In this document: in pieces, positions 15,772-56,275 of the stretch
Numbering within the stretch: the first letter of the stretch is position 1
Layout: every line of letters begins with the position of its first letter
Assembly: GCA_008632985.1 (NCBI GenBank)
Contig: QPGO01000042.1
Location: 124,001 to 188,000 of the forward strand
DNA length: 64,000 nucleotides
Reading direction: 5' to 3'
Source: Psammoneis japonica
Taxonomy: Eukaryota
The notes under the pieces: model-generated
What the model saw: the letters and a program-made list of their open reading frames with translations, nothing else
The model's database searches: none
What the model was told of the DNA's origin: nothing
Made by a program: the position numbers and the translations under genes

Positions 15772-16547
15772 TGGTTTGCCCAGTTTGAGAAGATCGAGGG
15801 AGAAAATAAGAAATACAGTAAGTGTACCGTATCGGAAGATCAGTGGTGGCGTGTGTCGGCCAGGCAGGCGATGACCGGCTGACTTACTGACCGCCCGCAC
15901 GACCGATTTATAATTTCATTCCTTCCAATGTTCATTCCCTGCGAATGTCACAATGAACTCCAGCTTCAATTTTTTTCCAAGCCAAAGGGTGAGTGCACAC
16001 AAAACTTTTACAAGCTTGTTTTTGTGGAGCTGTGCGCTCACCTTTCGATTTTCGAAACAATCAAAATTGAAGGAGTTTGTTGTGCCAAACATGTTTTTTG
16101 GCCGTTGTCCTTTTCTGTTGTGAAAATGGTCATGCACACCCGCTTTTTCATTTTTTGGAGCTCATGTTTTTGGTCTGCTTCAACTGAACTGATGTCTGAA
16201 CACACCCTGTTTCTGCAGACACCATGCAGTTAATTTTGCTGAGCGTGCCAAAAAAAAAAGTCCTCTCGACTTCTTCTCATCCATCTCATCCAGTGGCCCC
16301 CTCTTTTTGTTTGTTTTTGTGCACGTTTTTCACTCAAATCTCCAGTGCATCATGGTTGACAAAGAAAAGGAAGCAAACTGGAGTTGGCCATTGACACAAG
16401 TCAGGACCTGGAAACAGCAAAAACAAAAAGCACCATCTTGTGAAGGGCCATCCTTTCTGAGACAGCCACCCCCTCCCCAAGTCGATGCTTGAGGAGCGCA
16501 TGAGCCAGCCACTTCCTCCAATCTCACCTCTGCCAATGCTGCCATCA

Positions 16548-16860
16548 CTCCCTCCATTGCCCCCACTGACCAAACTCCTGTCAGCCTAAAACCAGCCACA
16601 GAGCACTTCACTTTCAACCCTTGTGCCTTTGATGAAACCCGCAAAGATCCCAACAACACTTGCCCCCTCCCAACTTGATGCCAAAGGAGCAACAGCCACT
16701 CCCTCCAACCTTGCATCTGCCAATGCCAACATGCCACCTTCATTCCTTCCATTGCTCCTGCCAACCAAACTCCTGTCAACCCAAGACTCTCTACAGAGTG
16801 CCCCACTTTCAATCCCCACACCTTTGATGAAACCCACAAAGATCCCCAACTGGCACTTTG
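16548..16860 (+). repeat. Degenerate direct repeat, two ~115-bp copies ~195 bp apart
   Basis: ccattgc..accaaactcctgtca...cactttcaa...cctttgatgaaaccc.caaagatccc occurs at ~16554-16651 and ~16748-16845. Confidence 0.85.
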
Positions 16861-17099
16861 TCTTGCAGCAGTCAAAATGAGAGATGGCATCTCATCTTGC
16901 ACTGCCACCCAGGAGCAACAGCCTGTTCCTTTGTGCACACATTGCAGTTTCCTAATTCAGCTTGCCACACTGAGGCTTGTAATTTGACGTTGCCAAAAAT
17001 GAGGGCTGATGCTGTGCAAATGACCAAGCAGTTCGGCAAAATGTGAGAACATGCCAACAACAAAAGCGGTGGTCAATGCTGCGCAGATGACAAAAAATG

Positions 17100-19795
17100 T
17101 TTTGTCTGTTCAGCGGCAATTGGAGTCTGCAGTTCTCCACAAAAAGCCTGCTGATGAGCCCAAATCATCTTCCAAAGACTGTGCCAATGCACTCAGCCCA
17201 AATCAAAAAACTGTTCATTGACAATTGAAGGAGGGAACCATTGCCAGAGCAGCCTTGATTGAGAGCAAAGAAGATGTCATGTGGTTGTCATCAAATCATC
17301 TTGACTTGGTGCAGTCTCCCAACTCAAGACAAATGACTCTAAAGATGAAGATGGAAACAAAAAATGAGTGAACAAATGGTTGCGCAATGTGTCATGCATG
17401 ACCTCCACAATGACATGTTGAAGCCTGTGGGTTCCAGTTGATTTGAACATGCCCACAATGCCAATGGCAAGACCCTCATCAGCAACACAATGTTTTGCTT
17501 TTTGATTCCCAAGCAATGTCAAAAAACAAACACCAGCCAAGAACGCAGCATGTGCAAATGCAGCGATTGTGTGAATGCACACTTTCTGCAAGATGCATTA
17601 AACAGGTTTCAAAGGAGGCTTTTAAAAAAAGATGCAGGTGGAGCAGAAGTGGTCAAGGTTGTGAATGATGACCCTGAAAACTCTGCAGCTGCAACAGTGC
17701 CATTGGCAAATTGGAGAACCAAATTGGCTGGTGTGAAGAGGGGGCATTTTGCCCCAACTCCAGTCACCTTCATCCCAGCAAAGCTCAAGATGCCAGTTGC
17801 GACCATCATTTGCAGCAATGTCAATGGTCAGGATCATCCCATTGGAAATGCATTTTGGCAAATGTGCACATTGCCCATCCTGTCCAACTCCATTGTTGGA
17901 ACAGAGTGAAAGTCCCAGTGAACCCCAAGTTTCGTTTCAGTGGAGTTTGACTGCAAAACATGTTCTGTTTGTGAGGCAGATTCAGATGGGAACAAGGATG
18001 CAAAGGTCAAGCAAAAGACCTTGTTGATAAGGTCTGTGAGCCAGCCAAGGTCTTTGCAAAAGAACACCACATTCCAAGTTTAAAGAAGCTGCGTCACCAC
18101 CTTCCCTGTGCAGCCATTCTTGGGGAAATCATTGCATGGAAATGCACTGCAAGGCATTTGAGTCAATGCATGTCCAACAGCATTTTCACATCCACTGGCT
18201 GCTCAGAGCATCTTCCATCTGAGTTTAACAACCAAATTCATGGGTTCATTGGGGCAGCAACCAAGCAATGTCCATTGAAGGCCAAGTTTGTGATGTGTGA
18301 TTGACATGAGGCTGAGAAAACATGTGTTGTGGGTTTCTCTCTGATTTTTCTAAGCAAGATGCTGCCACAACCAATGCTCACTTGGAAAAGTTTGTCACAT
18401 GGTTAAAAACCATGGAATGTGTCAGATGTGGCTTGTGATTTTCAGTCACACAGATGGTTGTGCCAAACACTGTCAATGCACTTTGGCACTGTGCTTTTGG
18501 TGCATGCCTGCAAATGCAAAGTTGTCTTTGACCATGCCATTGGAGCACACCTGGACATGGCAAAGAAGAGGTGATGGAATTGGAGCCTGCATTGGATCAC
18601 TCATTCATCCAAAAATGCAGCCCACAACTGTTGCAGGGAGTCAAAGATGAGGACTGGAAAATTGGGGCTAATGCTTTGGCAATGGATGACAACAATGTTG
18701 CAGCAGAGCACAGTTGCACACCAGAATGTTTGAAATTTCTTGAAAAGAAAGAGAGCGCCAATGGCACAGTTGGTGACAGGAAACATGCTGTGAGGGAATC
18801 CATTTGAAAGTTGAAAGAAAGGGTGCATCATCTGCAAGAAGCAGATGAAGTTCTTGGGCTCTTCAGTTGAAGTCAAGTTGCAAGGACAGGCACAACTGTG
18901 CAAGAAGTGCCATTGTGGCATTGGCGCCACTCACCATTTTTGTTTTGAACCCCTTTCCCATTGGTTTGGGTTGCCATGCAATGCATTCCTTGCACTTGTG
19001 ATGGCTGCCTGGATCAGCTCAAATGACATTGGGCAAACAATGTCAGCCCAACTGGCAGCCTTTGTGTGCAGCTGGCAACCAAGCTTGCAAACTGTGGCCC
19101 ATCTTTGGGGGGGGGGGGGGGGGGGGCTGAATGATTGGCAAGTTTGTCAGGTCAAACAACTGAGAGTGACAACAACAAGATTCAGCTGGTTCACAAATCT
19201 GTGTTGGACCTTTTGACTGAGGAAAAAGCAGAGGAAATTGTTGCAAACAGCCATGCCACATGTCCCGTGAGAATCTGACAAGGGCTTCTGTCTGCTGTGA
19301 TGGGATGAACTGCCCCACAAAGCACAGGAAGATGCAGTGTGGAATGAGTTTGATCCACCCACAACTGTTGAGGCTGGCAAATGGGTTTGCAAGGGAGTGC
19401 ATCTAAACTGTGCTCCAAGGGCCAGTGGATGGCGCACTCCTGGAGACACTGGGGGGTGTCAGACAAGAGGATTGTTGCTCAAGCACATTGTGGTTGCAAA
19501 CACCAAGCTTGATGAACCATCAGCCTCTCTGAAACTTCCAAGGACATGCAACAGGAATGAGGCTTTGCTTCTTAATCCACATCATTTGACTGAGGATGAG
19601 CATGAAGCCATTCTTGATGCAATCAACCAGTGTGTGAAGCCAATCACTGGATTGTTTTGAGGAATCTTTGGAGGAAGGGGGGGGGGGGGTGACAACAGCA
19701 AATGACCAGCCAGAGGAAAAAGAGTGATGATGAAGATGAGGAGGGGGAAAAGGACAGCATGGGAGTGGACAGTGAAAGTGATGAGTCAGAGGAAT
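17100..19795 (+). pseudogene. Degenerate DNA transposase (Sola-like DDE/D family)
   Basis: Frameshifted remnants MCKCSDC, DFSKQDAATTNAH, TDGCAKHCQC (18450-18479; cf. xDGCAxQYKC), PGHGKEE-DGIGA (~18550-18587; cf. HGKxxxDG), IPCTCDGC, acidic C-terminal tail. Confidence 0.6.
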
Positions 19796-19926
19796 GAAGC
19801 AGGAATGGGAAAACAACGAGTGCTGTTGTTGTCACTTTGCCTTGCATCCTGCACCAACTGGATGGACTGTCCAACACAAGCACATGTTTCCTGAGTCACA
19901 ACTCACAAGTCTTCCTTTCTTTGCCA

Positions 19927-20503
19927 TCACCAGTGCTTTGCCACCTGTGGAAGTTCAAAACAGTGCACCATGGCCACCAGTTTCTGGAGCTTGTTTGCCA
20001 TGAGCTTCATCTCATGTTTCTCATTTCCAAGACACCAATTGAAGCACTCAACATCACTTGCTGGCAATGCAAAACAGTGGTTGGAATCAAAGATCCACCC
20101 ATGGTGCAAGGCAATGCAGTGGTTGTTTACCAGATGGCACAAAGTCGTGCAGTCATCATGGCAGGTGGTCACATCAAATTCACCACCTGCTTCCAAGGAA
20201 ATGGCTCAATCTAAACTGCCACAAAACTTCATCTTTGAGTTCATTGGTGGAAAGTTTTCTCCTTCAAATGGCCACTCAGCATGTTTCTTGCAAACAACAT
20301 GTGATTGTTGTCAGCATTGATCTGGTGTTGGCCAATTTTTCAATGTGAGATGCAGTGCAATCTCTCATTTCCAGGTTGCCAACATGATGAAGAATGCTGC
20401 TGGCCAGGGATGAAAACACGCAAGTGTCTTTGCATGCTTGCAAGAATTTCACAGGCGGGCCAATCATTGGCAAGTTGCATCCATTGACATCAACACATTT
20501 CAA
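19927..20503 (-). pseudogene. Cargo ORF relic with putative papain-like Cys-His-Asp peptidase motifs
   Basis: QACKDTCVFSSLAS (Cys helix) followed by NHCIALHHGWIFDSN (His...Asp) and FALP...NWC. Confidence 0.4.
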
Positions 20504-23500
20504 ATCTTTTCAAACATCTGGAAACCACATCTTGAAATTGCACTCAGCCCAATCTGGGGTCACACACATTTTGCATGGTTGTTGTGCCCTCCAGGGTGCA
20601 ACCAACAAAACAAGCATCCCGCACAAGGCGTGGATCATGTTTGCCAATCTCCTTCTGACTCAGCCAATCTCTCAAGTTTTGCAACCTGTGGTGCACTGCA
20701 AATTGCATCCACCTTGTGCTTGATCTCATTCTTGCATTTTCAATTTAGTGCATGGACGCAGTTTGGTTTGTGTCAAGCATGTTCGATGAGGCCCACACAC
20801 ACTTGTCCATGGGATGGCCATTGGCATGGCCATTCCCAATGAGTGGCAGCAAGCAACCAAACAAGTGAGGAACAGCTCCTGTGGAATCACAGGCATGGTT
20901 TCTTCCTGTTTCATGAACTTGGATCAGTCCAAACAAATTTTGCAAACTTCAACATGCTTGAGCATTGATGTGTGTTCACTTGGTCATCTCCCCCTTTCTT
21001 TTGATGGTGCTTGTCTTTGCTCAAATGACAAAATGAAGGTGCACTTGGTTTCAGCTTTGAGCTGCAAAGGCCAATGAGATCCTCATCATTGCTCACTCCA
21101 GTGATGTCCTCTTTCATGAGCTTCATCTGGCATTTGTGACATGCACCTCCCACCCTCTCCTTCTCTGCCTTCATGTTCTGAGCACCAAGTTTTTGGCTGC
21201 CTCCGTGTCTCCCCCCAGCTCCTCCTCCTCCTCTTCCTCTTTGTCTCCCTTGTCTTTCTCTTCCTCTGCATCTCCTTGTCTGACTCAGTTGACTCATCCA
21301 TGCCTCCCCCTGCTCCTCTTCATTGTCATCTCACAGTCGCAACCTTTTTGTTCTCTTTTCTGCCTCTTTCATTTCATCCAAGCCTCTCTTGTGCATCTCA
21401 GCTGCAGTCATGCAATGGTGACAATGCATCCTTCTGCACAACAAACACCATTCATCGCAGTTGGGGAGCCACCTTGCCCAATTGGTGATGTGAGTCAGCA
21501 GCTCCTTGAGACAGCCCTTTTTTCTTGAGCCATCTGAGAAGTGCAGTTGCAACATTGGTTTGTTTGTGGTGACAGCCTCTGCCAACTTGGATCACCGCTG
21601 CAGCAAAAAGACTTGCGCAACTGATCCAGTGGGCACCAATGGCCAGAAAGAATCTGACTGCACCTGTCAGTTACAGGAACCCACAACACATGGTTGCACA
21701 GCCAACCAACAATGATGCCAAACAATGCCTGCAATGGCATTGTCTTTTTGTGGTTGCATGGACCAAGCAGGACAACATTTTGGCAACCATGACAGTCGGC
21801 ACAACATGTGAGGCAATTGGCATCATGCATCCGTGGGAAGTTTGGCATGCAGGGATCCTTCTCCATGTCATCACCTGGTTCTTCATGATCCTCCCTGTTG
21901 CAACACTCTTTGTGAAAACACAATCACTGCTGTTGTCCCCATTGGACTTCTTCAACTTGTCATGTTTGACACCTGGTTTGTGGTGCAATTTTTGTCCACC
22001 TGCTTCCTCTGAGCAATTTTTGATTTGACAGACTGACAGTTGTGTGTTTCACACCACAGCTGTTTGCAGATGAAATGGGATGATTTTTGTCACAACAAAA
22101 AAACAACTTGACATGCAACCCTTCAACGCCAACATTTCAATTTTGTTCTTCACTTCCCACTGGACTTAACTTGCCAGAAACTGTCAGACACGATCTTGCC
22201 AAAAGGTGGCTGCACAGTCTTCTTTGGATCCTCTCTGGTTGATGTTTGAGGGTCGTGCCTTTCACATCATCAATGTTGACCTGGCTGTCATTGCAAATTT
22301 TGTGCTTGGCAGCACTGAAATGTGCATTGCAGCAATGCAGCTTTCACTTTCAGCAAGTGGTTCCTCCCAAATGTCACCATCTTTGCTCAACTCAGTGCAT
22401 GGTTGAGATGCTCTGGGCTTAAATGAGGCAATTCCAAAACAATTGCAGAGCTCATTGGAGCAACCATCTCCTTTTCACACAATGCAACAGTGTTGTTTCC
22501 ATTGTTTGTCATGAGATTCTCTCACTCCCAGTGCTTGCAAACTTCCACCAAGTCTGGACATTGAGACATGGTGGTGTTCGTGCAGTTCTCAAAACCCATT
22601 GCTCCCATGCAACAAGGCACAGCAACTTCTGACAATGAAGACATGCCTCCAAGCTCCTGTGACAGCCAAACAAAATGGCTTGAACAAGTCTGACAAAAAA
22701 GGACAAACACCACAATTCAACAGCATGATTGTCTGTTTCTCATTGACCCCGTCACTGTCATCCTCAGAGTCTGCATGGATGCAATCAACAAGCATGCCAA
22801 TTCCTTTCTTTGCATGGCACAACAAAGCAGCAGCAATGTGCACCCCTTTTTGGCACTCCTGATTGACATTCCTGATGGCATTGCAACCAACATCAACATG
22901 TTGTTGTGCTTCATGCCAAGACAATTTCTTGTTTGCAATCAATTTTCTCAAGGTGAATTTCTTGAACAAACCAATCAGCAATGCAGCTGTGGAACAGGCC
23001 TCATGTTCTTTTGTTGCTGTTGAACCCATCAACACCATTCCTGTGATGAAACAGGTCAAAGAGAGAGCTGGTCTTCTGGGTTTTAGTGCAATCTTCCATG
23101 GTGAGTGGCTCAAATCCACCACAAAACCTTGTGGCACATGTGGGGATCAACTGAAGTGCAGAGAGGTGGCTGGCCCAAGTTTTGGAGCAACCCGCCTTTG
23201 AACAATGTCCCTTCATTGATTCAACGAAGCTCTTGATGCAAGGGTTGCATGCTTCTGTTTGTGCGACAAATGCAATCCAGAGAGGGGCCAATGTCAGTCA
23301 CTGTGAAAGTGATGCAGATGAACAGAGGCAGCCTCTGAGTCAGTTCCAGATGCCTGCTCAATGACACAAAAGAAGAAAGATCACAGCAAACAAACCAAAA
23401 CAAGTGCAAAATGGTGGCAACTGTCACTTGGAAACCGCTGGGGCGAATGTGTGAGTTTGGCAGAAATTCAGAACAAAGCCAAAAAAAGCACATGCACAGT

Positions 23501-24539
23501 GTCTCATGTGAACCACAGCACACAAAATTGACTTGCCAAACTCCAAACAAAAAAAAATGAAGAGATGGTGTCATCCACAATGACAGCAACTGTGCAGAGC
23601 TGCAGTCATGTTGCAATGACAATGACACAATGTTCAAATGAAAGGAACAGATGGTTCATGCAACTGCAAGGCAGGGCAAAGAGGGGCTGTGGAGTGGTGA
23701 CAGGGGTGTGCTGCATTGTGGCTGATGTTGTGTGTGGGGTGTTTTTGCATGTGGACCTCGCGTGCATGCAGAAGTCAGCATTGATCAACGCATTGCCAGA
23801 ACAACATTAGATGCCAACTGACACCACCTGTTCTTCCTGCAAAAAATGGCACATCAGTGGTTGGAGACATGTGCCTTTAACACAAATGTGTTTCATCATC
23901 AAAATGATTGAAGTTGGCCAAAAGCCAAAAAGTGCAAGCTCTGCCAGGTGGAGACAAAATTGTCTGGTGCTGAAAACTGCACAGAAAATCTCGCGTGATG
24001 GACTGTGAATCACCTGGGGCTGGAACAGGTCAGGACCGTGATTGCACTGGTCATGATGCCATGAAACTTCCCACCATGTGGTGTCCTTAGAAAGGAAGAA
24101 AAGTGCAGTGCAGGAGAGCACAACAAGGAGAAAAACAACAAGGCAGATTGAGCTGAGCATGCATGCAGAAAAACCACAAGGTGAGAAGTGGGTGTTCTCT
24201 GCCAGTGCTGTGCTTTCAAAATGTTGCTCTCTTTTGTCATTTGTTGTTTTTACAAAAAGCAAGAGGCCAAAAAAGACAGCTGACTGCAGCAAGTGTGGCG
24301 TGCTGTTGCTCAAAAAGCCCTCTCTTGTGTGAACAAGAGCTGAGCTTGAAAGGCTTGAAGAAGGATCCACCTGCATTGCCAAGTGTGCTCAAGAGCCAAG
24401 ACAGGCAGCAGCTCTCAAGAAGAAGACAGGGTTCTCACCATTGAAAAGATGAGGGGTGGTTGGAAGTCCAGACAGGTGCTGAACTCTGGGCAACAAATGG
24501 AGTGATTGCATGCTCTTTTCTTGGGGGGGGGGGGGGGGG

Positions 24540-24639
24540 NNNNNNNNNNNNNNNNNNNNNNNNNNNNNNNNNNNNNNNNNNNNNNNNNNNNNNNNNNNNN
24601 NNNNNNNNNNNNNNNNNNNNNNNNNNNNNNNNNNNNNNN
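24540..24639. other. Assembly gap (100 N), preceded by a G17 run
   Basis: N run. Confidence 0.99.
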
Positions 24640-26870
24640 CACCACAGATGTCAGCATCAAATTTTACATTGACAAAGTTGAGAGCACTCTCTCTCTCTCC
24701 ACCTCATGAGCAGCCAGTGGTGTGGAAAGAACCCACATGTGTCATTGTTCACCTGGCACAACCCTGACTTTGTTCTCCAAGAAGAGCAGGGGTCCTTTGG
24801 CAGGATTGTTGCTGTTCACAGAGCTGCCTTGGCAAGGAAACCAGCTGGGGGATCTGTGGGCACTTGCCTGCTGTGCAATCTCAGACTTTGGTGATGTGCA
24901 GCACTGCCCATGCCTTCCAAGACTGGAAAAAGACACAGGTCAGAAGTTGCTTCTCCCCCTGCTGCTGCTTAGGACAAGGAAGTTGCTTGGAGCTCATGCC
25001 AAGCTGCAAGCTGCTTTTTTCACACTCCTTCAAAAAACAAGCTTGAGATGGTGTGCCCCACATCTCAGCAAGCTCAGATGATGCTTGGCATTGTTGAAAT
25101 GATGCTCTCTTGCTGAAAACCTTCCTCCCACTGTGCTGTTCTTTTGTGCCATTGTGACTCTCCTCCATCCAATTGGGACAACAAGATTGCTTGTTCCACT
25201 GAAAAACGGCACCCAGTGATGCCTTCTTTGGCACTTCCAGCACCAAAGTCATTGTGAGAGACAATGCCAGGCACCACTCTCAGCACTCAAGCAGGGAGAG
25301 AGGGTGTGCAGGAGCAACTCTTTGTGAGCACTGTGCTCTGTCAAAAGCCCCAGTGAGCACCAGCAAGAGTTAAAATGCTCAAGCGAGCAAAGCTCTGACT
25401 GTTCCTGCAGTGCAGCCACTCCTTGATGCCAGATGCACAGACATTTCCAACACACTCTGTGCTCTCTCTTGACAATCTCTGCTTGTTTCATGCACAACAC
25501 TGCACCTGCATCATCACAAAGGATCTCCCAACCAGTGCTGCTGAAGAAGATCATTTTCAGCTGTTGTTGGCACTTTTGGCTGCACAAAATCTTGTCACAT
25601 GTTGTGGCTCAGACTCCACCCAACAATTTGCTGCAGCACAGGACATGCTGGTTGCAAGATGACTGATCTTGAAATGAGAGCAACAACACTGTGCTGCATG
25701 ACATGTCATCAGAAGATGTCAAGAGGTGTGCTCCCACTTGGCTTCTTGGCGGGGTCGGGAGGTTTCGGAGCACATCACTTTGTGGTCAATTCCAGCTGTT
25801 GGTGCTGACAAAACCATTTTACACCAGCCAGCATGTGAGCTGCCTTGTTGCCCCCCCCCCCCCCCCTGGTTGGATTGTGCAAACTGGCATGGGAGTAAAC
25901 TGGCCGGTTTGGTGAACATGATGTTGTGTGTCATGTGTCAAGTCCAGAGTTGTTGTGGCACAGCAATCTCTCCAAATGCTGGCACTTTTGAAACAGGCTG
26001 AAAACACATCCTGCTGGAAAGGGAGCAATGGAGCAGAGGGCACCCACAAGAGGAATGCAGTGAGAGGAGTGCAGCTGGGGTTGAGTCTGTGAGAATCTGC
26101 AAACTTCTCATGATGCACAGCTGCACACTCAAGCACCTTGTTTTGAAAGGAAAGGAGAAGGAGCCATCCTCATGTTCTTGCCTGGTGTTGCTGAAGTTGC
26201 CAAAGCCATTTAAAGAAACAATGTGCAAGACTGAGAAGGTGTTCAAGAAAACCTGCCAGAGTGGTGGTCTGCCCTTCTTTTGCACTCATCACTTGTCACA
26301 AAATGCACTCACCAGAGGCCTCCAACAGGAGTGCCAAACATTTGAATTGGTGCTGCAGTGCAACAATCAATTCTTTGGCAACACACACTGCAACTGATTC
26401 ACTCCCAAATAATGCAGCCAATTCCACAGCATTTTGTTGCTCGCTGAAAACCAAATGATTGTGATCGGTGCATTTTGTGTGTATAAACCAATGTCCCACT
26501 GTGCGATCTTCAGTGGCACGCCGATTCTTTGTGGGCGGATCAGGAATAAAAGGTGAGGGAGTGCAGCAAAGACTCAATCTATGTTTCGAGGCTCTATTTC
26601 CGGAGTAGCCATCCTCAAGAAAGGTGTCAATATTGTAGTTCTTCTGATGATTGACCAAAGCCATTCGATGCTGCTTGTAACCTTTATTCTAGAAAGCGTA
26701 GAGACCAAACCGATGGTCGATCTTCAAGCCATTTATTATTTGTAACATTGTCTATTGCTGTGTAGAAACCAAGAAGTGCGTAACCAACTTCAGTCAAGTG
26801 TACACACAACTTTTAATCTAGTAGGACATTTCTAATACCCATGCTGGTAGTATTTAGGCTATCCCTCAGC

Positions 26871-28234: not shown

Positions 28235-28439
28235 TTCTGATTCTCTTCTCCGTTTGAGTGATCACCGCCACTTTGGAAGACGAGAGCTAAAAACTTCTGT
28301 ACCTACCTTTGTCTTCGTTTTGTTGTTTTGTTGTGTGGATGATGATTCTCTCGCCGCAACTCGCAGACTCGCAACGGTCACAAACGGTTGTTTTAAAATT
28401 CAAACTTCAAGATACCCGGATGTATCACTCGTTCTGTCT

Positions 28440-32939: not shown

Positions 32940-33110
32940 CTAAACTAGAGGCCCTACTATACATGCTAGGAGAACAACCAAAAACCTACCTCTACTCTAG
33001 CGTACGGTACATAGTTCAGCACTCTCTACTACTAGAGCTCTCTAGCTATTAGAGTAGCTTCTCTAGTAGTAGAGAGAGTAGCTAGAGTAGAGAGTAGAGG
33101 TAGATAGAGT
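32940..33110. repeat. CTAG/TAGAG low-complexity tract upstream of RPS24
   Basis: actagagctctctagctattagagtagcttctctagtagtagagagagtagctagagtag. Confidence 0.8.
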
Positions 33111-43422: not shown

Positions 43423-44565
43423 ATGGAGGACACTCCGACAGGGGACCAGGAACGGAGACAGCGAGCGAGAGCGCGATGGAGAATCCTTCGCTCTGCTCTT
43501 CTAGGAGAGGCTACTTCATCAATGACCAAGGAGGCTTCGATACACAGATTTGAAGGGTTTTGCATGCTTTCGAGGCAGCGACTCCCAAATGACGGGGAAA
43601 GCGACCTTTTCGTAGACAGAGAATTCGAACTTGTTGAGTATGAAGCTCCAATCAATGACAGTGAATGTGTTAAAATTCGAGTGAGGGAGCGTATAAAAGC
43701 TGAAACAAGAAAAATTGGTCTTGAGGCACTAACGAGCCATCGGCATTACGAAGGAGTGGACAACACAGGCAATATGTGTATTTGGGACAGCGAATCTATC
43801 TTGACTTACTTCTTGATGCACCACGGTTTGAGCCGACGACCAACTGAAACTCCTCGCTACTTCCCAAACTTGATGTCATTGGTGTCACAGCATCGAGAGA
43901 TTCATGTAGTGGAACTTGGTGCAGGGATGGCTGGTCTTGCTGGACTGGCCATGGGAGCCGTTGGTTTGAATGCTACTGGTGATGATTTAACCGTGAAAGT
44001 CGTTTTGACAGACGGGCATCCCGATTCAGTTCAGAACAATGTAATCAATGCCAATCTGACCAAGGCTGTATATCCCTCAGACAACCAAAAAAGCACCATC
44101 GATTCGTCCCTTCTAATATGGAAGGATAATGCGTTGGGCGAATCGGAATGCGCAGACTTGGTGCTGTCGAACAACAACCGCCAGTTTGATCTTTGTCTAG
44201 CTTCAGACTGTCTCCACTTCCAGGAGTTCCACGCGGCGTTAATGCTGACGATAGCTCGGTTGCTTAGAAAGGATGGTGTGGCGATATTATGCCAGCCACA
44301 CCGGGGTAATTCTCTAAGCCGGTTTGTTCGAATGTTGGAATCGTTGAATGAAACCACTTCTCCTCTTTGGCACATTCGTTTGTTGACAGACTATGATGAA
44401 TCTATGACTCGTCGTCGCAATGAATATCTTGAGAACAACGTCTCTTTTGATTCATCCATTCATTATCCAGTTATTCTCGTACTTTGCAAGCTTCGTGCGT
44501 TAGACGAAACGATAGATAGACCGGTGGCTTTGACTCATATGGAACTACGAGATACGACAAAATAG
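43423..44565 (+). CDS. CAMKMT: Calmodulin-lysine N-methyltransferase-like (METTL21/Methyltransf_16 family)
   Basis: ARARWRILRSAL, GVDNTGNMCIWDSE, VVELGAGMAGLAGL, LTDGHP, ASDCLHFQEFH. Confidence 0.82.
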   Translation: MEDTPTGDQERRQRARARWRILRSALLGEATSSMTKEASIHRFEGFCMLSRQRLPNDGESDLFVDREFELVEYEAPINDSECVKIRVRERIKAETRKIGLEALTSHRHYEGVDNTGNMCIWDSESILTYFLMHHGLSRRPTETPRYFPNLMSLVSQHREIHVVELGAGMAGLAGLAMGAVGLNATGDDLTVKVVLTDGHPDSVQNNVINANLTKAVYPSDNQKSTIDSSLLIWKDNALGESECADLVLSNNNRQFDLCLASDCLHFQEFHAALMLTIARLLRKDGVAILCQPHRGNSLSRFVRMLESLNETTSPLWHIRLLTDYDESMTRRRNEYLENNVSFDSSIHYPVILVLCKLRALDETIDRPVALTHMELRDTTK

Positions 44566-44584
44566 ATATAATGCATAGACCTCT

Positions 44585-46789: not shown

Positions 46790-46834
46790 TACTTCTTTCT
46801 TCTCGTCCGCGGTGTCGTCAGCAGAGTCATAGAC

Positions 46835-46908
46835 TACTCTCAGTCTCTAGCTCTAGCTAGAGCTCTAGCTCTAGCTAGCTAGAGCTCTAGCTCTAGCTAG
46901 AGAGAGAA
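46835..46908. repeat. (CTCTAG/CTAG)n tract
   Basis: ctctagctctagctagagctctagctctagctagctagagctctagctctagctagagagag. Confidence 0.9.
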
Positions 46909-47199
46909 TTCAGAATGAAAGCTTCGTGCTGAGAGGTGGATTTGATGCAACTAGAAGCATGATCATACCGGTCGGCTCTTCGCTGAACAGTGACAGCACT
47001 AAGGTGCGCGCAATAAATCCTCGTGGACGAAGTTCTGTGTGCTGGGTGCCCCCGCCCCGCGTTCTTGCAGACGAAGATTATCGAAGATGCTGTATCATAG
47101 ACACCGGCACGTGGTTGGATGGGAGTGACGCAGTCTCGCATTGTGGCCGTTGATCTGCTCCATGTCGACTCAAGAGACTGGACAAAATGAACGATGGAA

Positions 47200-50120
47200 A
47201 TGTCCAGCGACATTAGTGTGACCAGAGGGTTGATCATTGTTGACACATCATTTGCTTGCACACTCAGAGGAGGCTCAGTTTGACAACAAAGTTTGAAGCC
47301 ATTTGCCACGTCATTTTGTTTCAGCATTGGCGGGGAGAAAAAGCAGGAGTTGTGGGCGGGACAGACAATCACAACAGCACTGCTGCCATCTGCATCTTTG
47401 TCTTTGCACTCAGTTTTTGCCGTGAGCAGTGTGAGTGGGTCCTGCTGAAGCTGGTGGGCAGATGACAAAAAGTTGACAAGAGCCGGGGTTGCTGGTGCGG
47501 CAGTGTGCTTTTTTGCAAAAAGCAGGGCCAGGGCAGGATGACAGCTCTTGCCATGTGTTTTTTTTTTACCCACAACAGATGCCAGCAGCACCTCTTTGCA
47601 ACACGGGGCAGGGTTTGTGTCCTGCTGCAAAAAGAGGGAGGATTGGTGGCACAAAGCACTGTCCCAAAGGAGAGCAGGAAGCAGAGCTCATCAAAAAAAA
47701 GAAGCCAGCAAAATGAAAAGGTCAAGACCACCAAATGTCTGCTTTGAAGGTGTGTGAAGTTTTTGGGTTCTGTGATGAAGTTGTGCCCATTGCAATCTTT
47801 GGTTGAGGAGAGTTGTTGCAATCTAAAACGTTGTGAGAAAAATGGCTGGCATTGCGTTGTGCTCCATTTCTGACACATGTGCATGGCATTTCAGACTTCA
47901 TTCAACATGTTGCCTCCCTGAGCTCAACAAGCGTGCATTGCAAACACATGTGCCAGCGGCACAATTTTTGGGATCTGATCTCACAGCTCTTCTTTGCAAA
48001 GTGAGGAAGCACCACAATGTTCCCTCAATTTTGCAGTGGTGGAATCGGAAGGAGGTGAAGGAGTTGTCTTGGGTGAAAACAGTGCATTCACTCAGTTGGC
48101 TGTGTGGTGCAAAATTGCACAAACACCAGATTTTGACATTTTGTGCAGCTGCAAGAGCACACATTGACAGTGTGTGTGGCCACTCTGTTGTGGCTGTGCC
48201 AGCATTTTGTCACTTCTTGCCACTGGCAGCACACCCACTGTGGGATTGTCAAAGTCACACAGTGCACAGAGCTTCTGAGAAGAGAGTCACAGCTGGAAAA
48301 TGTGGCAGCTGTTGCAGCTGTTTTGCTCAACAATGCTGCAATTGTCAAAGTCACAGAGGCATGGAGTCTTTGAGGAATGGCTGCAGCTGTTTTGCTGGAT
48401 GTCAAGCATTCCAGAAAACAAGCAGCATCAGGAGCAGCACTCAAAAATGGCAACTTGATTTAACCAGGGATGTTGGTTGGTGCAAAGTGTCAGAAGTTGG
48501 TGCTGGCTGTTCCTTGTGGCCACCTGCTCCATTTTGCAGCTTTGGCTCATCCAGGGTTCACTTCAAACATGGCAATGCAAACCCAAGTCAAAAGCCATGG
48601 ATTTATGATGTCAGTTTGTGGCATCAGAGTTGGGCCCATGTTTTCAACCCCCAAGCTGCTGAATGTAGACCCACCCAAAGCTGAAAGCATGTGTCAAAAC
48701 ATTGGAGCCAACCACAAGTTGATGCCAGCAAAGAACTGGATTTTAGTCCAGGACACCAAGCCTTGCCTCCATTTTCGTGATTTCATGAAGACTTTTTGAT
48801 GAAGTCTTTTTGCATGCATGGCAAAACCATCAATGCAGGCAAGTTCAAAGTCAATGAAGAAAAGGTTTGTTGTGCTGGTTTGTTCTTCAACAGGTCCAAA
48901 GTTGGAAGCAAAGCTGCAAGCTGCAGAAAAAAGTGGGCACAAAATGAAAGCTTGTTTCACCTGCATTCCAAGTTTTGCTGTGGAGCTGAGTGATGTTCCT
49001 GAATGTCTTTGCAGGGGGGGCTTTGCCAACATGGAAATGCAATCATTTTGTACAGCCAAGCACTTCTTCACAGATTTTAACAGGTCTGTGGTTCACAGCT
49101 GGGGCAAGACATTGCTTGTTGGCTGAAGGTCTGAAATCCAAGGCAACGTCTGGAGCCTTGTTGCACAGGCAAATGTCGGCAATGGCTGGGCAGCCAGTTG
49201 TCAGCTGGTGCAGCCAAAAGAGGCAAACACAGGATGTCTCTTTTGCAGAAGAAGCCCAGGCAGCCAGGCAGAAGCAACTGAGGAAGAAACTCAACATTTG
49301 CCTTGTTTTTCTGACAAGGAATTTTTCAAAAAGCAAGTGAGATGTTGCTTTCATGGTTCTTAAAGTTGTGTCTGAAGTCTGCCCCTGCTGCAAACCCCAG
49401 TGGAAAAAACTGAAAAAGCCACTTTGTAAAATGACAGCAACTGAGCTGGTGTTGCATGAAAAAAACCTTGGAACAGAGCATTTCATTTTGGCAACAGGGG
49501 CGCTGTCTTGTCAACCAACTTGCCCAAACTGTGCACATGCCAGCGGGCTTTGTCTTGTCAACTAACTTGCTTGGTGTCATGCAAAACAAGTTTGCCACCA
49601 GGGAATGAAAAAAACAGACTGGCCAAAGTTTGGCTCTGCGCTGCGAGACATTTGGCCATGGGGCTGGGCATCATCATTGTCAAAGATTTTTGTCATGAAA
49701 CATTGGCATTCAAAGTTGGGCATCATGGGCATTTTGCTTGAGAAAACAAAACAGCTCAGACAATCAGCTTTGATTCCTGTGCTTTGGAACATTTCACAGT
49801 TGGCGCACAATGTTTTGATGCCTCAAGCAAAAAAACCATGACAAGACAACAGCAACCCTTTCTGCCACCTTTCCAAGGAGCTGCAATGCACAAGCAAGAC
49901 CATGTTTTGCAAACGCTGCATGGGACCTTCACAAACCCAGAGCAATTTGTGGCCCAATCAGATGGACAACGAGCAACCAAATTTTTTTTGCATTGAAGCT
50001 GCTTTGCTCTCAAAGTTGTGCATGAAGAATGTTTTGCACTTGAGGAACAAAACAATTCAGCCAATTAGGTTTGATCCCTGCACATTGGGACATTTCACAA
50101 TGAGACGCTGATTTGGTCAT
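47200..50120. mobile_element. Unclassified CpG/TpA-depleted decayed repeat or gene relic
   Basis: Same compositional signature as the other transposon domains; no family motif recognised. Confidence 0.55.
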
Positions 50121-50608
50121 GTGACAACCACATTTGTCAAATGCGGTACGAAAGAACTGGGGTGTGGGTTAGCTTGTTGCCGGAGTTGCAGGGTGGAAGC
50201 GTAGCAGCACTTTAAATGTAGAATTTTGGTTTTGTTTTGTTTTTCCGTTGTTGGAAGATCTCACACGCACTTGTTGGCACCATTTTTACGCGCGCAACAT
50301 GTCTGCATGCAACTGCACACAGAATCGTTGTAGCCAAGCCGAGGCGGTGGCAGGGAATCTGCGAGTCCAGAATAGCATAGAAAAGCTTTGTCTGCACAAA
50401 TCAAGACTGCATTGGATTGCTCGTTCTGCCCTTCATCACTTGCAAGTGCGAAAGAAGCCTTGACCGTCTACTCGGACGCTGAAAAGCAGGTTTCTTGCAT
50501 TCCTATAATGACGACCAAGCGATTACTTGCTATTTCGAACAGTATCTCCATCAAAGGGAACAGGAGTCCTTCAAACATCACTACACTTTGCCCTAAAGTG
50601 TTTAGCAC

Positions 50609-51852
50609 TTACAAGAGCCATTCACTAATAGCTTGTTTGCTCCACTGGTAAAGCGAGTCCTGCAGGACAATATCGTAGCTCTCTGGTGAAGATTCACTTT
50701 GCGACACATCCGCGTCAAACTTCTGTAGGAGCATTAACACCGATGCCAGAAAGAAACTCACAGCATCTCTCACCCGGCATGTAGCTGAAAATGGATGAAA
50801 AACGAATTTTGGTAACCGAGCGGTCAAGCGCGTAAAAATCCCAGAACTCGTGACGAAATCAGCATCGTCGTTTCGGAAAATGGCGTAAAGCGCTGCGGCA
50901 ATCCCCCAACTGTCAGCTGGAAATGCAAGCGTGTTCATAATGGTATGGGCAAGCGATCCCTGTTTACCACCGATATCAGTGGCGACCCAGCCAGGACAGA
51001 TGTTCACTATTCGCGCGTTTCCCTTGTGGAGTCTTGCGAGAGCCCTAGAATGAAGCAGCTGTGCAAGTTTCGCGTTGGCATAAGCGCGTTGATCCCCCCA
51101 AATAAGACCTGGAAAAGCGCCAGGAAGAGCTGCTGGTGGTGGTTCTCCATTAATCACCTGTAAGTCAGTGCCGTCGACTGCCCAGTGAAAAGAGGAGGAC
51201 ACCTGCAAAATAGTTGTCTTGTTTGACGCACCAAGTGGCGCCAGGAGCTTCTCCGTCAAGAGAAAATGTGACAGATAGTTAACTGTATGGAAGTGACAAA
51301 AAAGGCACTTGATGAGCAAGAGAGCTTCACAAAACATCCAAAGTAAAAGCAGAAACAATCTAAAAAAGGCTTCGTACCACCAAACGACAAATCATAGTTT
51401 TGAGCTGTTGTGGGGTGACCTCTCCCCCCATGGAAATGCGCATGATAATGCATGCCTGCGTTGTTAACAAGCACGTCTACACTTGGAAACCGACTTGATA
51501 CGACGCTTGCTGCGTTCGAGATCGAGGATAAATCGCTTAAATCCGCGACAACAGGAATGATTCCGGGCATTTCTTCTTCCATTTTCTGCAACTTGTGCTT
51601 TGCCCGCCCTATAACAACGACGGTTGCTCCCATTCGAAATAACGCAAGAGTCAGTGACTTGCCAATCCCTGATGTCGCACCAGTAATGACTACAACCAAT
51701 CCTTTCAACGGGGTTGGAGATGTTGAAGACTTGCCCATGAATTCATGAGCCAGCCGATCTATTTCGGACATGTCCAATTCGGGCTGCGGCCATCCTATCA
51801 ACACGCCCACAACACACACAAGTATGATTCCAAGCCACGTGCTGCTCTTCAT
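50609..51852 (-). CDS. Short-chain dehydrogenase/reductase (retinol dehydrogenase/WWOX-like), one intron ~51287-51377
   Basis: VVITGATSGIG, DLSDL, VLVNNAG, VNYLSHFLLT, VSSS, YANAK (YxxxK), CPGWVAT. Confidence 0.9.
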
Positions 51853-52029
51853 TATGGAGCAGGCTTTTTAAACTGAAAAGGGATAAAAGCAATCAGCGGC
51901 AAAGCGATTCACGGCACCGCATCCCGCATCTTCGACGATCGACTGACTCTCTCATCATCGCATCATCACTGTCGCATCGTCGCGTGTCGCGTCGTCGTCA
52001 TCTTTTTGTTAGTTGTCGCTGGCTAGCTG

Positions 52030-55000
52030 GCCTGGCCGTGGACCGTGGATGGTCGCTGTTGGAGCTTCAGTGGGGAAGGACAGATGCGTGCCCAGCCATC
52101 CTCATCCAGTTTCAAGTTGGCTGCTAGCCGGCCATGTTGTGCCGTCCTTCAACAGATTGGACAAGTTGTAATTTTGATTGAGAGCAACATGCACCATGCC
52201 CCATCCCTCCTGTTGCAGCTGCTGGTGGTGTTGGTGAACACCAACACCTTCTGGTGCACCCACCTCTCCTCCAAAAAAAGAACTTGCACCAAGGCAAGTG
52301 TGGATGGTGGAAAGGAAGGTGGCCATTTGGGTGGGGAGTGTGCCAACATTGGGTGATGGAAATGGCTGCACACACTGCTTTGGCAGCCATCCTAGAAGGG
52401 CACCTCCTTGCATCCAGCAATTTGGCTCTGAAGTTGTTCTTGGCCCCCTTGGCGTGCACTGTCTCACGTGCCTCAGAGAGCCCAAGTCAGCTGTCGAGTT
52501 GCCCACGCAGCCACGGTCACCACCCATCTGTCTGCACCCATGACCACATCACAACATCTCTCCAGGATGGACAAGTCTTTGGTTTCCAGGATGATGTCCT
52601 GCCAGAAAACTTTGTCAACATTGTGGTGCACTTGGATGGCCAGTTTGAGGCTCTGCAGGCTCCCAAGTTCTTTTGTGCCGCCACTGCAGCAAACATGGTG
52701 GCCTTCTTTTAGGGTGCACTCATTGATGAGGAGGATGTCATGCCTCCACAAATTGATGGCACATGGGACACAGAAGCCATTTCAGTGCACAGGATGCTCC
52801 AAATGCCCTGCTCATGTCTTTGCTTGGCCCTCCTCACCTGGGATCTGACCCCACTTTAGCCACTGAATGAACTGGGTGGCACCACACAAAATGATGGCCA
52901 GGTGGGGGACTGAGCGCCATCAATCAGTTGGCCACATGCCACCCCAACCATCCACACTGCCATAAATTCTGACCCTGTGCACTGTCTGGGTGTGAACAAG
53001 CTGCAGCCTTGCACCACCCTCAGCTGCGGACACTGGCCTTTAAGAGCACTGGTGAAAGGCATCACTCCAAGCCCTGCCTGCCTTGGACAATCATGCTGCC
53101 ATGGACAATGTGGACTGTGTGCTGGCCTTTGCCAACATTGTTCAAGCAGATGCAGTGCACAACAATGCCACTTGCGCTGCCACAGCTGCAGCTGCCACCA
53201 TGCCCAAGACACCATGCAAAGCACTCCCACAGACTGTGCGGGTTTGGCTGCTGCTGTCCAGAGTGCTGACTGCTGTGTTGCATTGCCAGAGCTGCACCAA
53301 AGAGCAGAGGTGCATCAGCTTCATGCAAGCCTCAGAAGTCTGCACTCTAGAGCCCAGTGCTGCTCCCAGGATGGCACCACCAGTTGTCTCCAGTCTCCAA
53401 AGGAACTCTGTGAGAAATGGCATTCCAAGGGAAGGTGGCTCAACACATGCACTGAGTCAATGACCTGACAGCATGGGGTGTGTCTCCACTCACCTTACCA
53501 ACTGTGACTTCTTCATGGGAGACAAGTGCTCCAGCATCCAAGTTGGTCATGAATGCTGTGACTTGTCCCTTGCTGCACTGAATCTGACACCCATGGCAGC
53601 CAAACAGGAGCAGTTCTGCACAGAGGACATGCCACCTGTCAGTGTGGTGGCATGCCACAAGGAGCAAGCAGGACAACCATCCCCCCCCCCAGATGACATC
53701 ATCCAAGAGGCATCAACCATCCCCATGCAGAAGCATTCCATGAGTTTTGTTGCCAAGACTGGTGGGAGATGGCGGATCTGCTGGAGCAATCAGGCACCTC
53801 AACAAGTGAGGGAAATGCATCACTGCTCAGTGAGATCCAGACTGCTTGACAGTGGCCAACAAGGCATTGCGCAGGAGCCAGCTCTCCCCACTGACCCATC
53901 TGCCTTGGCATGACTTGCTTGATGAAAATGACAAACCAGCTGACAACCCCCAAAGAAACAGTGCCAGGAGTGGAGAGAGCTCACACAGAGGAGAGCCAGC
54001 AGCAGAGCATGGCATGACCCAAGAGCCACCAGCATCAAGAGTCCAACAACCCGTGAGAGCTTGGACAAGTGTGTTGTTCCAGGCTCAGATTTGTTTGGCC
54101 ACTGGGCACATGCCTCAAAAATTGTGAGCACCGTGGCACCCACGGCTGCCTTGTGCCTCACAAATGCTCCATCATGAGCACCGTTGCATGCAAGCATGGC
54201 CCATCCAAACTACAGGAAGGAGCAGTGAGCACCCACAAAGCAGCAAATCAGGCAAGTTTGCAGATGAAGGCATCAACCTCTCTCACACTGTCTGGGTTGG
54301 ATCCAGTTCATTGAAAAACATCTGAACAGGGAACCCCCTGTCTTGCACACAATGGGATTGAGCTGCCACACCCAGTCACCAGGCTGTTGAGTGGAGTCTT
54401 TGTGGTCAACGGAGCCTGGCTCCAGCTCACCACCAAGGACTGGTCCACTGTGACCAAGATTTGGGAGGCAGCCACCAATTGTGGCATTCACACCTCCACC
54501 AAAAGCCACTTGGGGTTCTTGGAAGTGAACATGGCTGAAATGATCTGCAAATGCCACTGGGCAGTCCTCCAATGCTGCACTTCTAAGGAGCAAGAGCCTC
54601 ATTTTTGAGCATCACTCTGTGGGTGTGGTGTGCCCCAACAAGACTGGTGACCATTGTGTGCCGCAGTGGACCGCAGCTGCTGTGGCCTCAACAATGAGAC
54701 CTGCAAGCTGGCCCCACAAGAGGCCGTGCAATTTGGCCATGCACTGAGATGAGCTGGGTGCCACCTGCCATGTTCCAAGCAGATCTGGCCTTCAGACCAG
54801 CCCACACAATGAAGCTGGACCTCTCAAATGGGTCATGCAGAGTCAGCAAGCTGTGTCTGGAGAACATGCGGGGTGGCTTTCCCTGTTGGACCCTGAGTGG
54901 AGCCACCAGTGGTCTTGCCATTGGTGCTTTCCATGGGCCAGTCAGAGAGCCTGTCATGCTTCTGTGTGCTGAAGCCAAGCCCAGATCACAACCTTGCCAA

Positions 55001-56275
55001 TGCCCACTCCTCCACAGCACAGGACTCATCAATGCACCCACTGGAGCAAGCCATGTCAACACCCGCTCCTCTGACTTTGAACCTTTGCATCAATGTGCTG
55101 CTGCCGCCAAACCCTGACCACATGTGTGGACAATCTGCCCAAACCACAAGCCATGCACCAGAGCCACCATTGAAGTTCGTGCCCGACACATGTGTGATGC
55201 TGACTGTCACACCTCCACTGGCAGCAGCAACAAACCATTGTGCTGAAGAACAAGCCATTCCAAGGAAATGCCTCGTGGGTCCACCATCAAGACCATCTTG
55301 TGGTGGGTTGTCAGTTTCTCATCCGGCACAATCCAACTGCCACAGCATCACCAGGGCCAGCTCCTTGTTTCTGCACTTGGGACACTGTGCACAGGAGTCT
55401 CAAAGAATCTCAAAGAAGTGCTGCGGTCATCTCTTGGGCAAGGTTCACAGCATGCTGCTTGCCACAGCAGGAGGCACAGGGCTGTGACAATTGAACTTGC
55501 AGCACTGTCTCACCTCCACCTCTGACTCCTGCATCTCAGTTGATTGGCACACATGTCAACAACTCTGGGACCTCCACACTGGCAAACCAGACACCACTTT
55601 GCATCCCACATGGCTCACCAAGTTGCTCCCAGCTGCCCATGGACACTGCTGCAGTGCCTGCAATGAAGCCAGGGTTCCGAGGTGTCCTCCTCCTGAGCCC
55701 TGTCAACATCTTCCATCTCTTGGCAACCACACCACTGCCAGTGGACCTCAAATTCACCATGGTCTCTGACGAGTCCAATCCACAGGGCAGCATTGTCAAC
55801 TCCAACTTGCAGCTGGCAGGCACAGCATTGTGCAAAGCAGTCATTGGCAACAACGCAGACGTGCACAAAAAAGTGGCCTGCATGTGCTGCAACAACACCA
55901 TGTCCATGTCCCAATGTGGCAAAAGATCCATTGCTGCCACCACAGGCCCAGCCTCTGACACCCTTCAAACTGGAAGCCTCCAAAACAGCACCACCTTTGC
56001 CACAGTCATGTGCTGTGTGCCAGGTCTCGCCAACCTGCCAGCCGACACATGTTTCCTCCAACTCAGCACCAACACTGACCTCCTTTCCAAGCTTTCTCAT
56101 CTTGCCCCACAGATGAAACATTGGCAAATGCAACACCCATTGCATGCCACCATTGCTGTGTTGATCTCTGTCTTGTGATGGCAAAGACACACCAAACTGT
56201 CACTGAGGAGCAAGCCCATGGCACCAACATGGCATGGGCAAAGTGCTGGCTCCCACTCACCCCTGTCCACCGGTG
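52030..56275 (+). mobile_element. Decayed DIRS/Ngaro-like (tyrosine-recombinase class) retrotransposon: gag-like region plus RT and RNase H relics, truncated before the recombinase
   Basis: Frameshifted RT remnants GVVPQ (~54625), VDRSCCGLN, LAPQEAVQFGHAL, MKLDLSNGSCRV, PLVLSMG.SES..CFC; RNase H remnants NSNLQLAG, CNNT, TTGPA, CVPGLANLPAD. Confidence 0.75.

Follow-up and report, generated by a model that had tools for sequence, protein, structure and literature searches.

The DNA analysed here is a 64,000-nt stretch of the genome of the pennate diatom Psammoneis japonica (contig QPGO01000042.1, positions 124,001 to 188,000 of the forward strand), referred to below as the window. Compact, mostly uninterrupted eukaryotic genes, including those for biotin synthase (84% identity to proteins of diatom transcriptomes, 85% to the Phaeodactylum enzyme), ketopantoate reductase, an ARM-repeat protein and an organellar-type gyrase B, flank four domains from which the dinucleotides CG and TA are nearly gone. 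The limits of these domains, termed D1 to D4, were set by the spacing between consecutive CG or TA sites, together with dinucleotide counts tabulated per kb across the whole window. D1 spans 15942–26410 (10.5 kb, with a gap of 100 N at 24540–24639), D2 spans 35335–40144, D3 spans 47214–50066 (2.9 kb) and D4 spans 52169–56271 (4.1 kb, with a GC content of 0.54); combined, they occupy approximately 22 kb of the 64 kb. D2 is the depleted part of a tandem array on the forward strand (35080–40233), which consists of approximately 2.9 copies of a 1776-bp unit and includes N gaps at 36681–36998 and 38379–38631. Four domains with near-absent CG and TA had been noticed beforehand in a sequence-only reading of the same DNA, and their coordinates held in both the dinucleotide tables and the CG/TA spacing.

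The depletion of CG and TA in the four domains was confirmed and is very strong. For pooled counts, D1, one D2 unit, D3 and D4 (18,655 dinucleotide positions) were compared with the rest of the window, used as the background (40,624 positions). The pooled domains contained 139 CG (observed/expected ratio, o/e, 0.13), 59 TA (0.05), 2187 CA (1.83) and 2080 TG (1.83), while the background contained 2302 CG (0.98), 1687 TA (0.62), 2808 CA (1.12) and 2879 TG (1.12). At background frequencies, the domains would carry approximately 1,057 CG and 775 TA. A CG o/e below 0.35 combined with a TA o/e below 0.25 was detected in 76 of the 247 500-bp segments of the window. The hand counts given in the sequence-only reading proved exact, with no TA and two CG (and 33 CA and 34 TG) at 53101–53340, and 13 TA and 13 CG at 61201–61440. 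Its remark that translations of the domains are poor in Tyr and rich in Cys, His, Gln, Met and Trp also agreed with our six-frame counts, in which Tyr made up 0.05% of residues in the domains versus 2.25% in the background, and all five of the other residues were raised. Among the 971 stop words of the domains, 875 were TGA, 70 TAA and 26 TAG. The overall GC content was 0.488 in the domains versus 0.482 in the background.

As judged from the CG/TA spacing, the borders of the domains are sharp, mostly within approximately 30–70 bp. At the right border of D1, the final isolated TA lies at 26410 and normal density begins at 26442, and D2 opens after 35335 with a 411-bp gap lacking both CG and TA. 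At the left ends of D1 (15942–16700), D3 (47214–47620) and D4 (52169–52720), the depletion of both dinucleotides is weaker, with a retention, by manual count, of approximately 20–30% for CG and 10–13% for TA, against approximately 10% and 3% in the domain interior; the right ends are abrupt. Inspection of the borders by eye detected neither a target-site duplication nor a terminal repeat. Other sequence features were noted in the surroundings. Palindromic degenerate CTCTAG/CTAGAG repeat patches, which are very rich in TA, lie at 28400–28700, 32900–33200, 34200–34900 and 46845–46904, two of which precede D2 and D3 by a few hundred bases, and the TA o/e reaches 1.36 in 34001–35000. In addition, a 15–20-nt motif, TATGTACGCTATAAA, is present in four or more places at 34936–35094, in forward as well as reverse-complement orientation, directly before the first D2 unit.

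Blocks of this kind raise the question of a technical artefact of sequencing, base-calling, polishing or assembly, against which the sequence-only reading had proposed a check on raw reads. The record was compared with contigs assembled independently of it from a public run (X1), which holds 0.99 of sampled words from 47000–56900 and whose platform is not on record. The X1 contigs reproduced D3 and D4, the latter with no differences and at a depth of 63–74 versus 59–64 in the flanking genes. Single X1 contigs extend from gene to D3 (42105–48032), from gene to D4 (50335–53690) and from D4 to gene (53681–58000), and both borders of D3 and of D4 are bridged by X1 contigs. These observations exclude an artefact of assembly or polishing, though not a hypothetical artefact at the level of the reads. 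Two points would still fit an artefact: X1 is possibly the source sample of the assembly itself, and the D2 copies are near-identical beside N gaps, perhaps in part an effect of assembly. In view of the independent contigs with gene-like depth, the sharp borders and the same composition shared by diverged paralogues, we consider a technical origin very improbable, and no error mode known to us converts both CG and TA solely in blocks of 3–10 kb.

Transitions preserve the purine/pyrimidine alphabet. In this alphabet, the domains were indistinguishable from the background: the o/e of pyrimidine–purine (YR) steps was 0.958 in the domains versus 0.953 in the background, and the RR, YY and RY steps were equal too. 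We then calculated a mass balance, in which the CG and/or TA of either the whole background or a non-coding-like 8.2 kb were turned into TG/CA in silico. Conversion of both CG and TA gave a CA/TG o/e of 1.84 and a GC content of 0.470 for the whole background, and 1.86 and 0.468 for the non-coding-like part, while conversion of CG only gave 1.56 and 0.431, and 1.43 and 0.407, respectively; the domains themselves show 1.83 and 0.488. The CG-only model also predicts a TA o/e of 0.51–0.72, against the observed 0.05. Because the joint conversion matches the observed CA/TG, the missing TA is present in the domains as extra CA/TG. The proposal of the sequence-only reading that both dinucleotides were erased and converged on TG/CA was thus borne out by the dinucleotide counts and the mass balance. 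TG and CA were equally common in every 500-bp bin, and the autocorrelation of TG/CA labels at lags 1–8 ranged from −0.04 to 0.05 in D1, D3 and D4, as in the converted background, with a maximum of 0.10 in the short D2 unit. This equality and lack of correlation indicate that the events were independent for each strand and site, which argues against both editing of an RNA intermediate and processive bursts on a single strand.

Old internal duplicates provided a second line of evidence on conversion. D1 contains a diverged 193-bp duplication (16470–16651 and 16663–16846), and the D2 unit contains an older duplication of approximately 420 bp (35711–36067 and 36111–36512); a supposed third 193-bp unit in D1 failed to align. 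The copies showed a nucleotide identity of 73–82% and a purine/pyrimidine identity of 88–92%. Four well-aligned blocks supplied 89 conserved YR steps, for which the expectation was independent change at the level of non-YR transitions (28 of 215, 0.13). CA was present in both copies at 37 steps and TG at 27. Adjacent double changes between TG and CA were observed 16 times, against 1.5 expected (P=3e-12), CG-type single differences seven times against 10.1 (P=0.20), and TA-type single differences twice against 10.1 (P=0.002); with a looser alignment, 103 steps yielded 20 doubles. Two routes may lead to such doubles, namely an ancestral CG or TA resolved on opposite strands, or a new CG or TA that arose from CA or TG and was quickly pushed to the other product. 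The scarcity of TA-type singles shows that TA, like CG, is short-lived once present. Differences between the X1 contigs and the record were found at 247 places (164 transition and 83 transversion). Among the 40 of these places that were listed, 38 lie in D3, and the 40 include at least four adjacent TG/CA doubles in the same contigs, at least five singles between TA and TG/CA and at least four singles between CG and TG/CA. Only the doubles carry weight among these D3 paralogue places, because CA and TG make up approximately a quarter of dinucleotides and the singles, by our estimate, are no more frequent than by chance.

Next, we analysed the neighbours of the surviving sites. As many as 51 of the 57 residual TA with both flanks in a domain were in TTA/TAA contexts. 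Compared with the background, the retention of TA was 0.51 in TTAA, 0.28 in CTAA/TTAG, 0.13 in GTAA/TTAC and at most 0.04 in other contexts, with no survivor of approximately 238 expected in ATAT, ATAC/GTAT and ATAG/CTAT taken together. These data were described by a first-order, strand-additive decay model, in which the rate is set by one neighbouring base and decay starts from the tetranucleotide frequencies of the background. For TA, the decay per strand (rate multiplied by time) depended on the base 3′ of the A, with values of 3.6 for T, 2.0 for C, 1.4 for G and 0.24 for A (deviance 6.6, 6 degrees of freedom, P=0.36). For CG, it depended on the base 5′ of the C, with values of 1.5 for T, 1.1 for A, 0.9 for C and 0.6 for G (deviance 4.3, 6 degrees of freedom, P=0.64). 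TA decay was thus 15-fold faster in TAT/ATA than in TAA/TTA, whereas the effect of context on CG was mild, TCG being the fastest. The strong neighbour effect on residual TA is that of a mutational footprint and would not be expected from a generally TA-poor composition. Among the dinucleotides ending in A, only TA was lost (AA 1.25, GA 0.90 and CA 1.83), indicating a requirement for T on the 5′ side of the mutated A. On the assumption that the internal duplicates are older than most of the decay, ordinary transitions amount to approximately 0.065 per site per lineage, and the per-strand decay to approximately 1.0 for CG and 1.5 for TA (from the retentions of 0.13 and 0.05), so that, very roughly, CG was lost 10–15 times and TA 20 times as fast as ordinary transitions occurred.

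Taken together, the mass balance, the YR identity, the duplicates and the context-dependent decay favour an A:T>G:C change at TpA, as put forward in the sequence-only reading, over an origin from TA-free DNA. We regard conversion of TA, as opposed to its ancestral lack, as likely, the direction of change being suggested by composition and by the 89 YR steps. The competing view is that only CG decayed in place, and that TA was absent, or had been lost earlier in a mobile or RNA-borne lineage through CpG/UpA counter-selection or RNA editing. CG and TA are both self-complementary, so that selection on a single RNA strand would look symmetric in DNA; the sharp borders fit insertions, the D2 unit was duplicated after its depletion, inserts specific to D3 paralogues are equally depleted, and no outgroup shows the ancestral TA. 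Nevertheless, the domains contain as many YR steps as normal DNA, with the missing TA found as extra CA/TG, and duplicates that are 13% diverged at non-YR sites should have regained approximately 10 TA-type differences, but show two. Depletion in viruses and retroelements lies at 0.2–0.7, and the value of 0.05 for TA in the domains is far beyond this range.

An RNA-borne or mobile lineage might also have left a selectable coding or RNA-family remnant, and none was detected. No significant Pfam family was found in nine long open reading frames (ORFs) of the domains, in the six frames of D1 or in 12 frame translations of D3 and D4; the D1, D3 and D4 translations thus gave no sign of a replicating coding element of the kind subject to CpG/UpA suppression among RNA viruses and retroelements. 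The MT-A70 match of one domain ORF (E=0.03) was treated as chance. Word-based protein searches found no relatives for one D3 ORF or for the D4 ORF at 55495–56175, and the sole match of an exhaustive HMMER search with the D3 ORF, P0121, was rejected as a tandem-repeat junk ORF of Cys-rich composition. In the domains, no tRNA was detected and no Rfam family matched at its gathering score, with two chance-level matches at E up to 1. The period-3 signal in the purine/pyrimidine code exceeded 4 in 14% of 64 domain segments versus 37% of 123 segments outside; the slight rise in a few domain segments was too weak to define any former gene. Saturation of CG and TA alone would change approximately 10% of bases, and transposon proteins should then stay recognisable, so that the domains are either non-coding in origin or considerably older. 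The transposon identity assumed in the sequence-only reading is unproven, the six frames of D1, D3 and D4 lacking Pfam families. On this evidence, an origin of the TA deficit before or outside the present location appears unlikely, and conversion of TA in place is the reading followed below.

With respect to copy number, the restriction of the process to repeats, as proposed in the sequence-only reading, was correct only in part and is not upheld in the form given. D2 is tandemly repeated, D1 contains internal repeats, and the summed depth of X1 contigs over D3 is 1.6–4.3 times that of the flanks (bins of 97–254 versus 59, at a likeness of at least 80%); summed depth is not a copy number, but the value suggests a few extra copies of D3 elsewhere in the genome. 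D4, by contrast, has single-copy depth at the same likeness, and two repeated sequences are undepleted. One of these is the first part of the D2 unit, which consists of approximately 255 bp with normal CG and TA (14 CG and 9 TA in the first copy, 35080–35335) followed by approximately 1.5 kb of depleted sequence. Because every unit is composed in this way, the depletion of D2 appears to predate the tandem amplification, without spread since; the three copies differ at only four real sites and are uninformative for TA. The other is an element of approximately 170 bp at 50159–50330, with approximately 55 copies in the X1 contigs (bin depth 3459 versus approximately 60; 62 contigs), which lies 90 bp beyond the right border of D3, has a normal CG/TA density and serves as a counter-example to simple targeting of repeats. 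At other loci, the sequences flanking this element look CG/TA-poor (joint inserts of 25, 39 and 40 nt contained one CG and no TA, by inspection), and the loose ends of other copies enter CA/TG-rich sequence; the element may mark the ends of similar islands elsewhere. BLAST among the domains found internal duplications only, D1 to D4 being unrelated to one another, and BLAST after purine/pyrimidine recoding found nothing further over a reversed-sequence control (top score of the control, 148 bits).

Fungal repeat-induced point mutation (RIP), which depends on RID/DNMT4, resembles the present case in its block-wise transition hypermutation, its sharp edges and its destruction of coding capacity, and the TCG-biased RIP of basidiomycetes also resembles it in the TCG preference of CG decay. 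A true RIP-like defence, in which duplication triggers a burst of mutation through, for example, a DNMT4/RID-like enzyme and a second enzyme acting at TpA, would agree with the repeats in D1 and D2, with the extra summed contig depth of D3, and with TCG as the fastest CG context, RIP-like mutation in basidiomycetes being TCG-biased too. However, RIP changes only C:G to T:A, creates TpA, lowers GC and needs duplication. In the domains, GC was unchanged at 0.488 versus 0.482, where CG-only conversion would give 0.41–0.43, and in place of a CpA>TpA preference with enriched TpA, TA was destroyed (0.05) and CA/TG raised (1.83). Duplication above a length threshold does not account for the distribution either, since D4 is single-copy and every copy of the 1.78-kb tandem unit retains its 255 bp without depletion; the undepleted element of approximately 170 bp with approximately 55 copies also speaks against it, although this element may lie below any length threshold for RIP. 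Fungal RIP gives strand-coordinated mutation tracts, whereas the domains show no such runs of TG or CA, the label autocorrelation being near 0. Finally, the rate of CG decay relative to ordinary transitions, as a rough estimate, lies within the range of spontaneous 5-methylcytosine (5mC) deamination. A diatom DNMT4 related to fungal RID, of function not known according to PMC9998398, counts in favour of a duplication-triggered defence, which we nonetheless judge to be improbable.

We therefore propose, as the more probable account, that these domains are apparently non-coding islands, several of them at least partly repeated, in which transitions drove both self-complementary YR steps near saturation. 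CG would have changed to TG or CA, and TA to TG or CA, at the level of DNA, on both strands and site by site, within sharply bounded domains and with the purine/pyrimidine order and overall GC kept. Several points weigh against this proposal. The direction from TA to TG/CA is not polarised by an outgroup, an orthologue or a less-mutated copy and rests on composition and the 89 YR steps, and the ancestor was approximated by the background of the window. By our own estimate, single TA or CG differences among the D3 paralogue places listed (40 of 247) were not rarer than by chance. Simple conversion misses the o/e of AT (0.79 observed versus 0.92–0.93 predicted), GC (1.26 versus 1.07–1.14), GA (0.90 versus 1.09–1.11) and AA (1.25 versus 1.12–1.13), misfits that may stem from an ancestor of different composition or from additional biases not recognised here. 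The three D2 copies hardly differ, and the undepleted 255 bp of each are intact, suggesting that the process is old, or not triggered by duplication, or that the array is partly a product of assembly. Lastly, none of 2,057 segments in 80 loci around relatives of biotin synthase was depleted (642 of these segments came from 43 diatom-like loci), a weak test on mostly short, gene-centred contigs; either the process lacks generality, or regions of this kind fail to assemble.

As for the loss of CG, the closest known system is the decay of methylated CpG, as in the repeats of vertebrates and plants and the DNMT5-methylated repeats of diatoms, which likewise converts CG to TG/CA with a reciprocal gain of TG and CA, acts per site and strand, is confined to silent or repeated DNA and proceeds at roughly ten times the rate of other transitions. 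In the domains, CG was reduced to 139 from an expected 1,057 or so, with nearly equal numbers of TG (2080) and CA (2187), as such decay on both strands would produce. A rate of CG loss of the size estimated here is what spontaneous deamination of 5mC gives elsewhere, and this part of the process therefore needs no special machinery. The domains would accordingly represent CG-methylated silent chromatin, in which CG was lost through 5mC deamination as ordinary decay of constitutively methylated DNA; methylation of diatom repeats at CG through DNMT5 is described in PMC9998398 and PMC5124317. Decay of methylated CpG does not account for the whole pattern, however, because it leaves TA in place, whereas TA in the domains (59 versus approximately 775 expected; 0.05) fell below CG (0.13) and GC was not lowered. 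The anomaly thus lies in the loss of TA, which would require an additional A:T>G:C process, at least as fast as the loss of CG and dependent on a 5′ T.

Candidate mechanisms for this additional process are graded below as shares of our total belief. The leading candidate, which we put forward tentatively, is an ADAT/TadA-like or toxin-derived DNA deaminase that would be targeted to silent chromatin and hydrolytically deaminate the adenine of TpA; its activity may extend to the C of (T)CG. Its chemistry would mirror that of CG loss, since in both an amino base becomes a keto base and yields TG on the struck strand. Enzymes of the ADAT/TadA type, which act on tRNA A34 after U33, on fungal mRNA (Tad2–Tad3) and, in amphioxus, on DNA (ADAT2/3), change A to G with a strict 5′ T or U, comparable to the loss of TA alone among dinucleotides ending in A. 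In PMC4817773, U occupied position −1 in 85.7% of fungal ADAT-type editing sites, and the review PMC11802342 describes deamination of both A and C in DNA by amphioxus ADAT2/3, with TCG as the target. Several points argue against a deaminase of this type. At position +1, the fungal enzymes prefer A to about the same extent as G (PMC4817773), the opposite of the domains, in which the order was T 3.6 > C 2.0 > G 1.4 > A 0.24 and TAA decayed slowest. Furthermore, the known members of the family act on RNA or on single-stranded loops, and they prefer loops or single strands as substrates. To our knowledge, no natural deaminase of adenine in double-stranded DNA is known, and we know of no ADAT/TadA-type enzyme that remodels chromosomal domains.

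A rather unlikely alternative for the loss of TA is oxidation of 5-methylpyrimidines at TpA and mCpG steps by an enzyme of the TET/JBP type. TpA, like mCpG, carries two 5-methylpyrimidines, while the stable product TG/CA carries one, and a single enzyme family can act on both 5mC and T. According to PMC11804724, TET-family enzymes oxidize 5mC and T, nearby mC enhances the oxidation of T, and strand breaks are discussed as arising from 5-hydroxymethyluracil (5hmU) in the two strands of TpA; in dinoflagellates, another algal group, repeats are enriched in 5hmU, which silences them, as stated in PMC11572971. TET/JBP oxidation yields an epigenetic mark or a lesion, and we know of no documented case in which it has led to saturating T>C change.

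Less probable still is a bias in T:G repair of the very-short-patch type, or a regional lack of mismatch repair. The very-short-patch repair bias of Escherichia coli depletes CTAG, since repair after 5mC deamination also turns T:A into C:G at look-alike sites, and in this respect it erodes a TA-containing word; it is, however, bacterial, word-specific and modest. It was set aside because such repair should regenerate CG from TG, which the domains do not show. Patches of DNA polymerase eta at WA (A or T followed by A), suggested in the sequence-only reading, fit poorly and were rejected along with ADAR-like editing, since both should erode AA too, yet AA/TT was not depleted (1.25). N6-methyladenine at ApT was rejected as involving the wrong dinucleotide, editing of retroelement RNA because TG equalled CA in every 500-bp bin, and GC-biased conversion because it would restore CG.

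Some other features of the window were also recorded. The gyrase B gene on the reverse strand (13278–15900), whose 5′ end lies directly against the left border of D1, comprises two overlapping ORFs (13278–14240 and 14143–15900), which suggests an intron or a frameshift. On the forward strand, 6329–7540 encodes a 2OG-Fe(II) oxygenase superfamily protein (PF03171, E=4e-9), by this match not of the TET/JBP family, and 31042–32472 a bacterial-type LtrA family protein (PF06772, E=7e-30). Contigs from a second run (X2) omit 51283–51377, 57236–57318 and 57429–57492 (95, 83 and 64 nt), whose ends CT..AC correspond to GT..AG on the reverse strand. Because its contigs skip pieces with such ends, X2 probably represents RNA, and the omitted pieces introns of the flanking reverse-strand genes; X2 contigs gave no cover over D3 and D4 and were not used as evidence.

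In the full-text literature searched, we found no description of the joint erasure of CG and TA in repeats of diatoms or other organisms, and the consulted portions of PMC2806351, PMC4504042, PMC9998398 and PMC5124317 do not describe it. The loss of CG is probably ordinary methylation-driven CpG decay, and for the loss of TA no counterpart was found. There is a fair chance, though one short of even, that the activity behind the latter is categorically new. With similar reserve, we suggest that diatoms, or at least this one, may possess a chromatin-targeted, TpA-specific DNA mutator, either an adenine deaminase or an oxidase of paired 5-methylpyrimidine steps that acts on TpA as on methylated CpG. 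Combined with the decay of 5mC, such a mutator would form a two-armed inactivation system, possibly with a role in defence, that erases both palindromic YR steps, and silenced DNA would lose TAA and TAG stops, Tyr codons, TATA-like signals and CG sites at constant GC. Because only TGA stops are left and long spurious ORFs appear, the islands defeat repeat finders and gene callers, and they would distort composition-based analyses of diatom genomes. If the proposal holds, domain-restricted A:T>G:C change at TpA would join the short list of context-specific mutational processes of eukaryotes, alongside CpG decay, RIP and APOBEC-type editing, and would be the first known process that erases TpA instead of creating it. 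It would also provide a function to be sought among the unexplained DNMT4, deaminase and dioxygenase genes of diatoms, and might point to a natural enzyme that turns A:T into G:C in DNA. For the biology of diatoms, the finding would bear on how these organisms silence and dispose of unwanted DNA.

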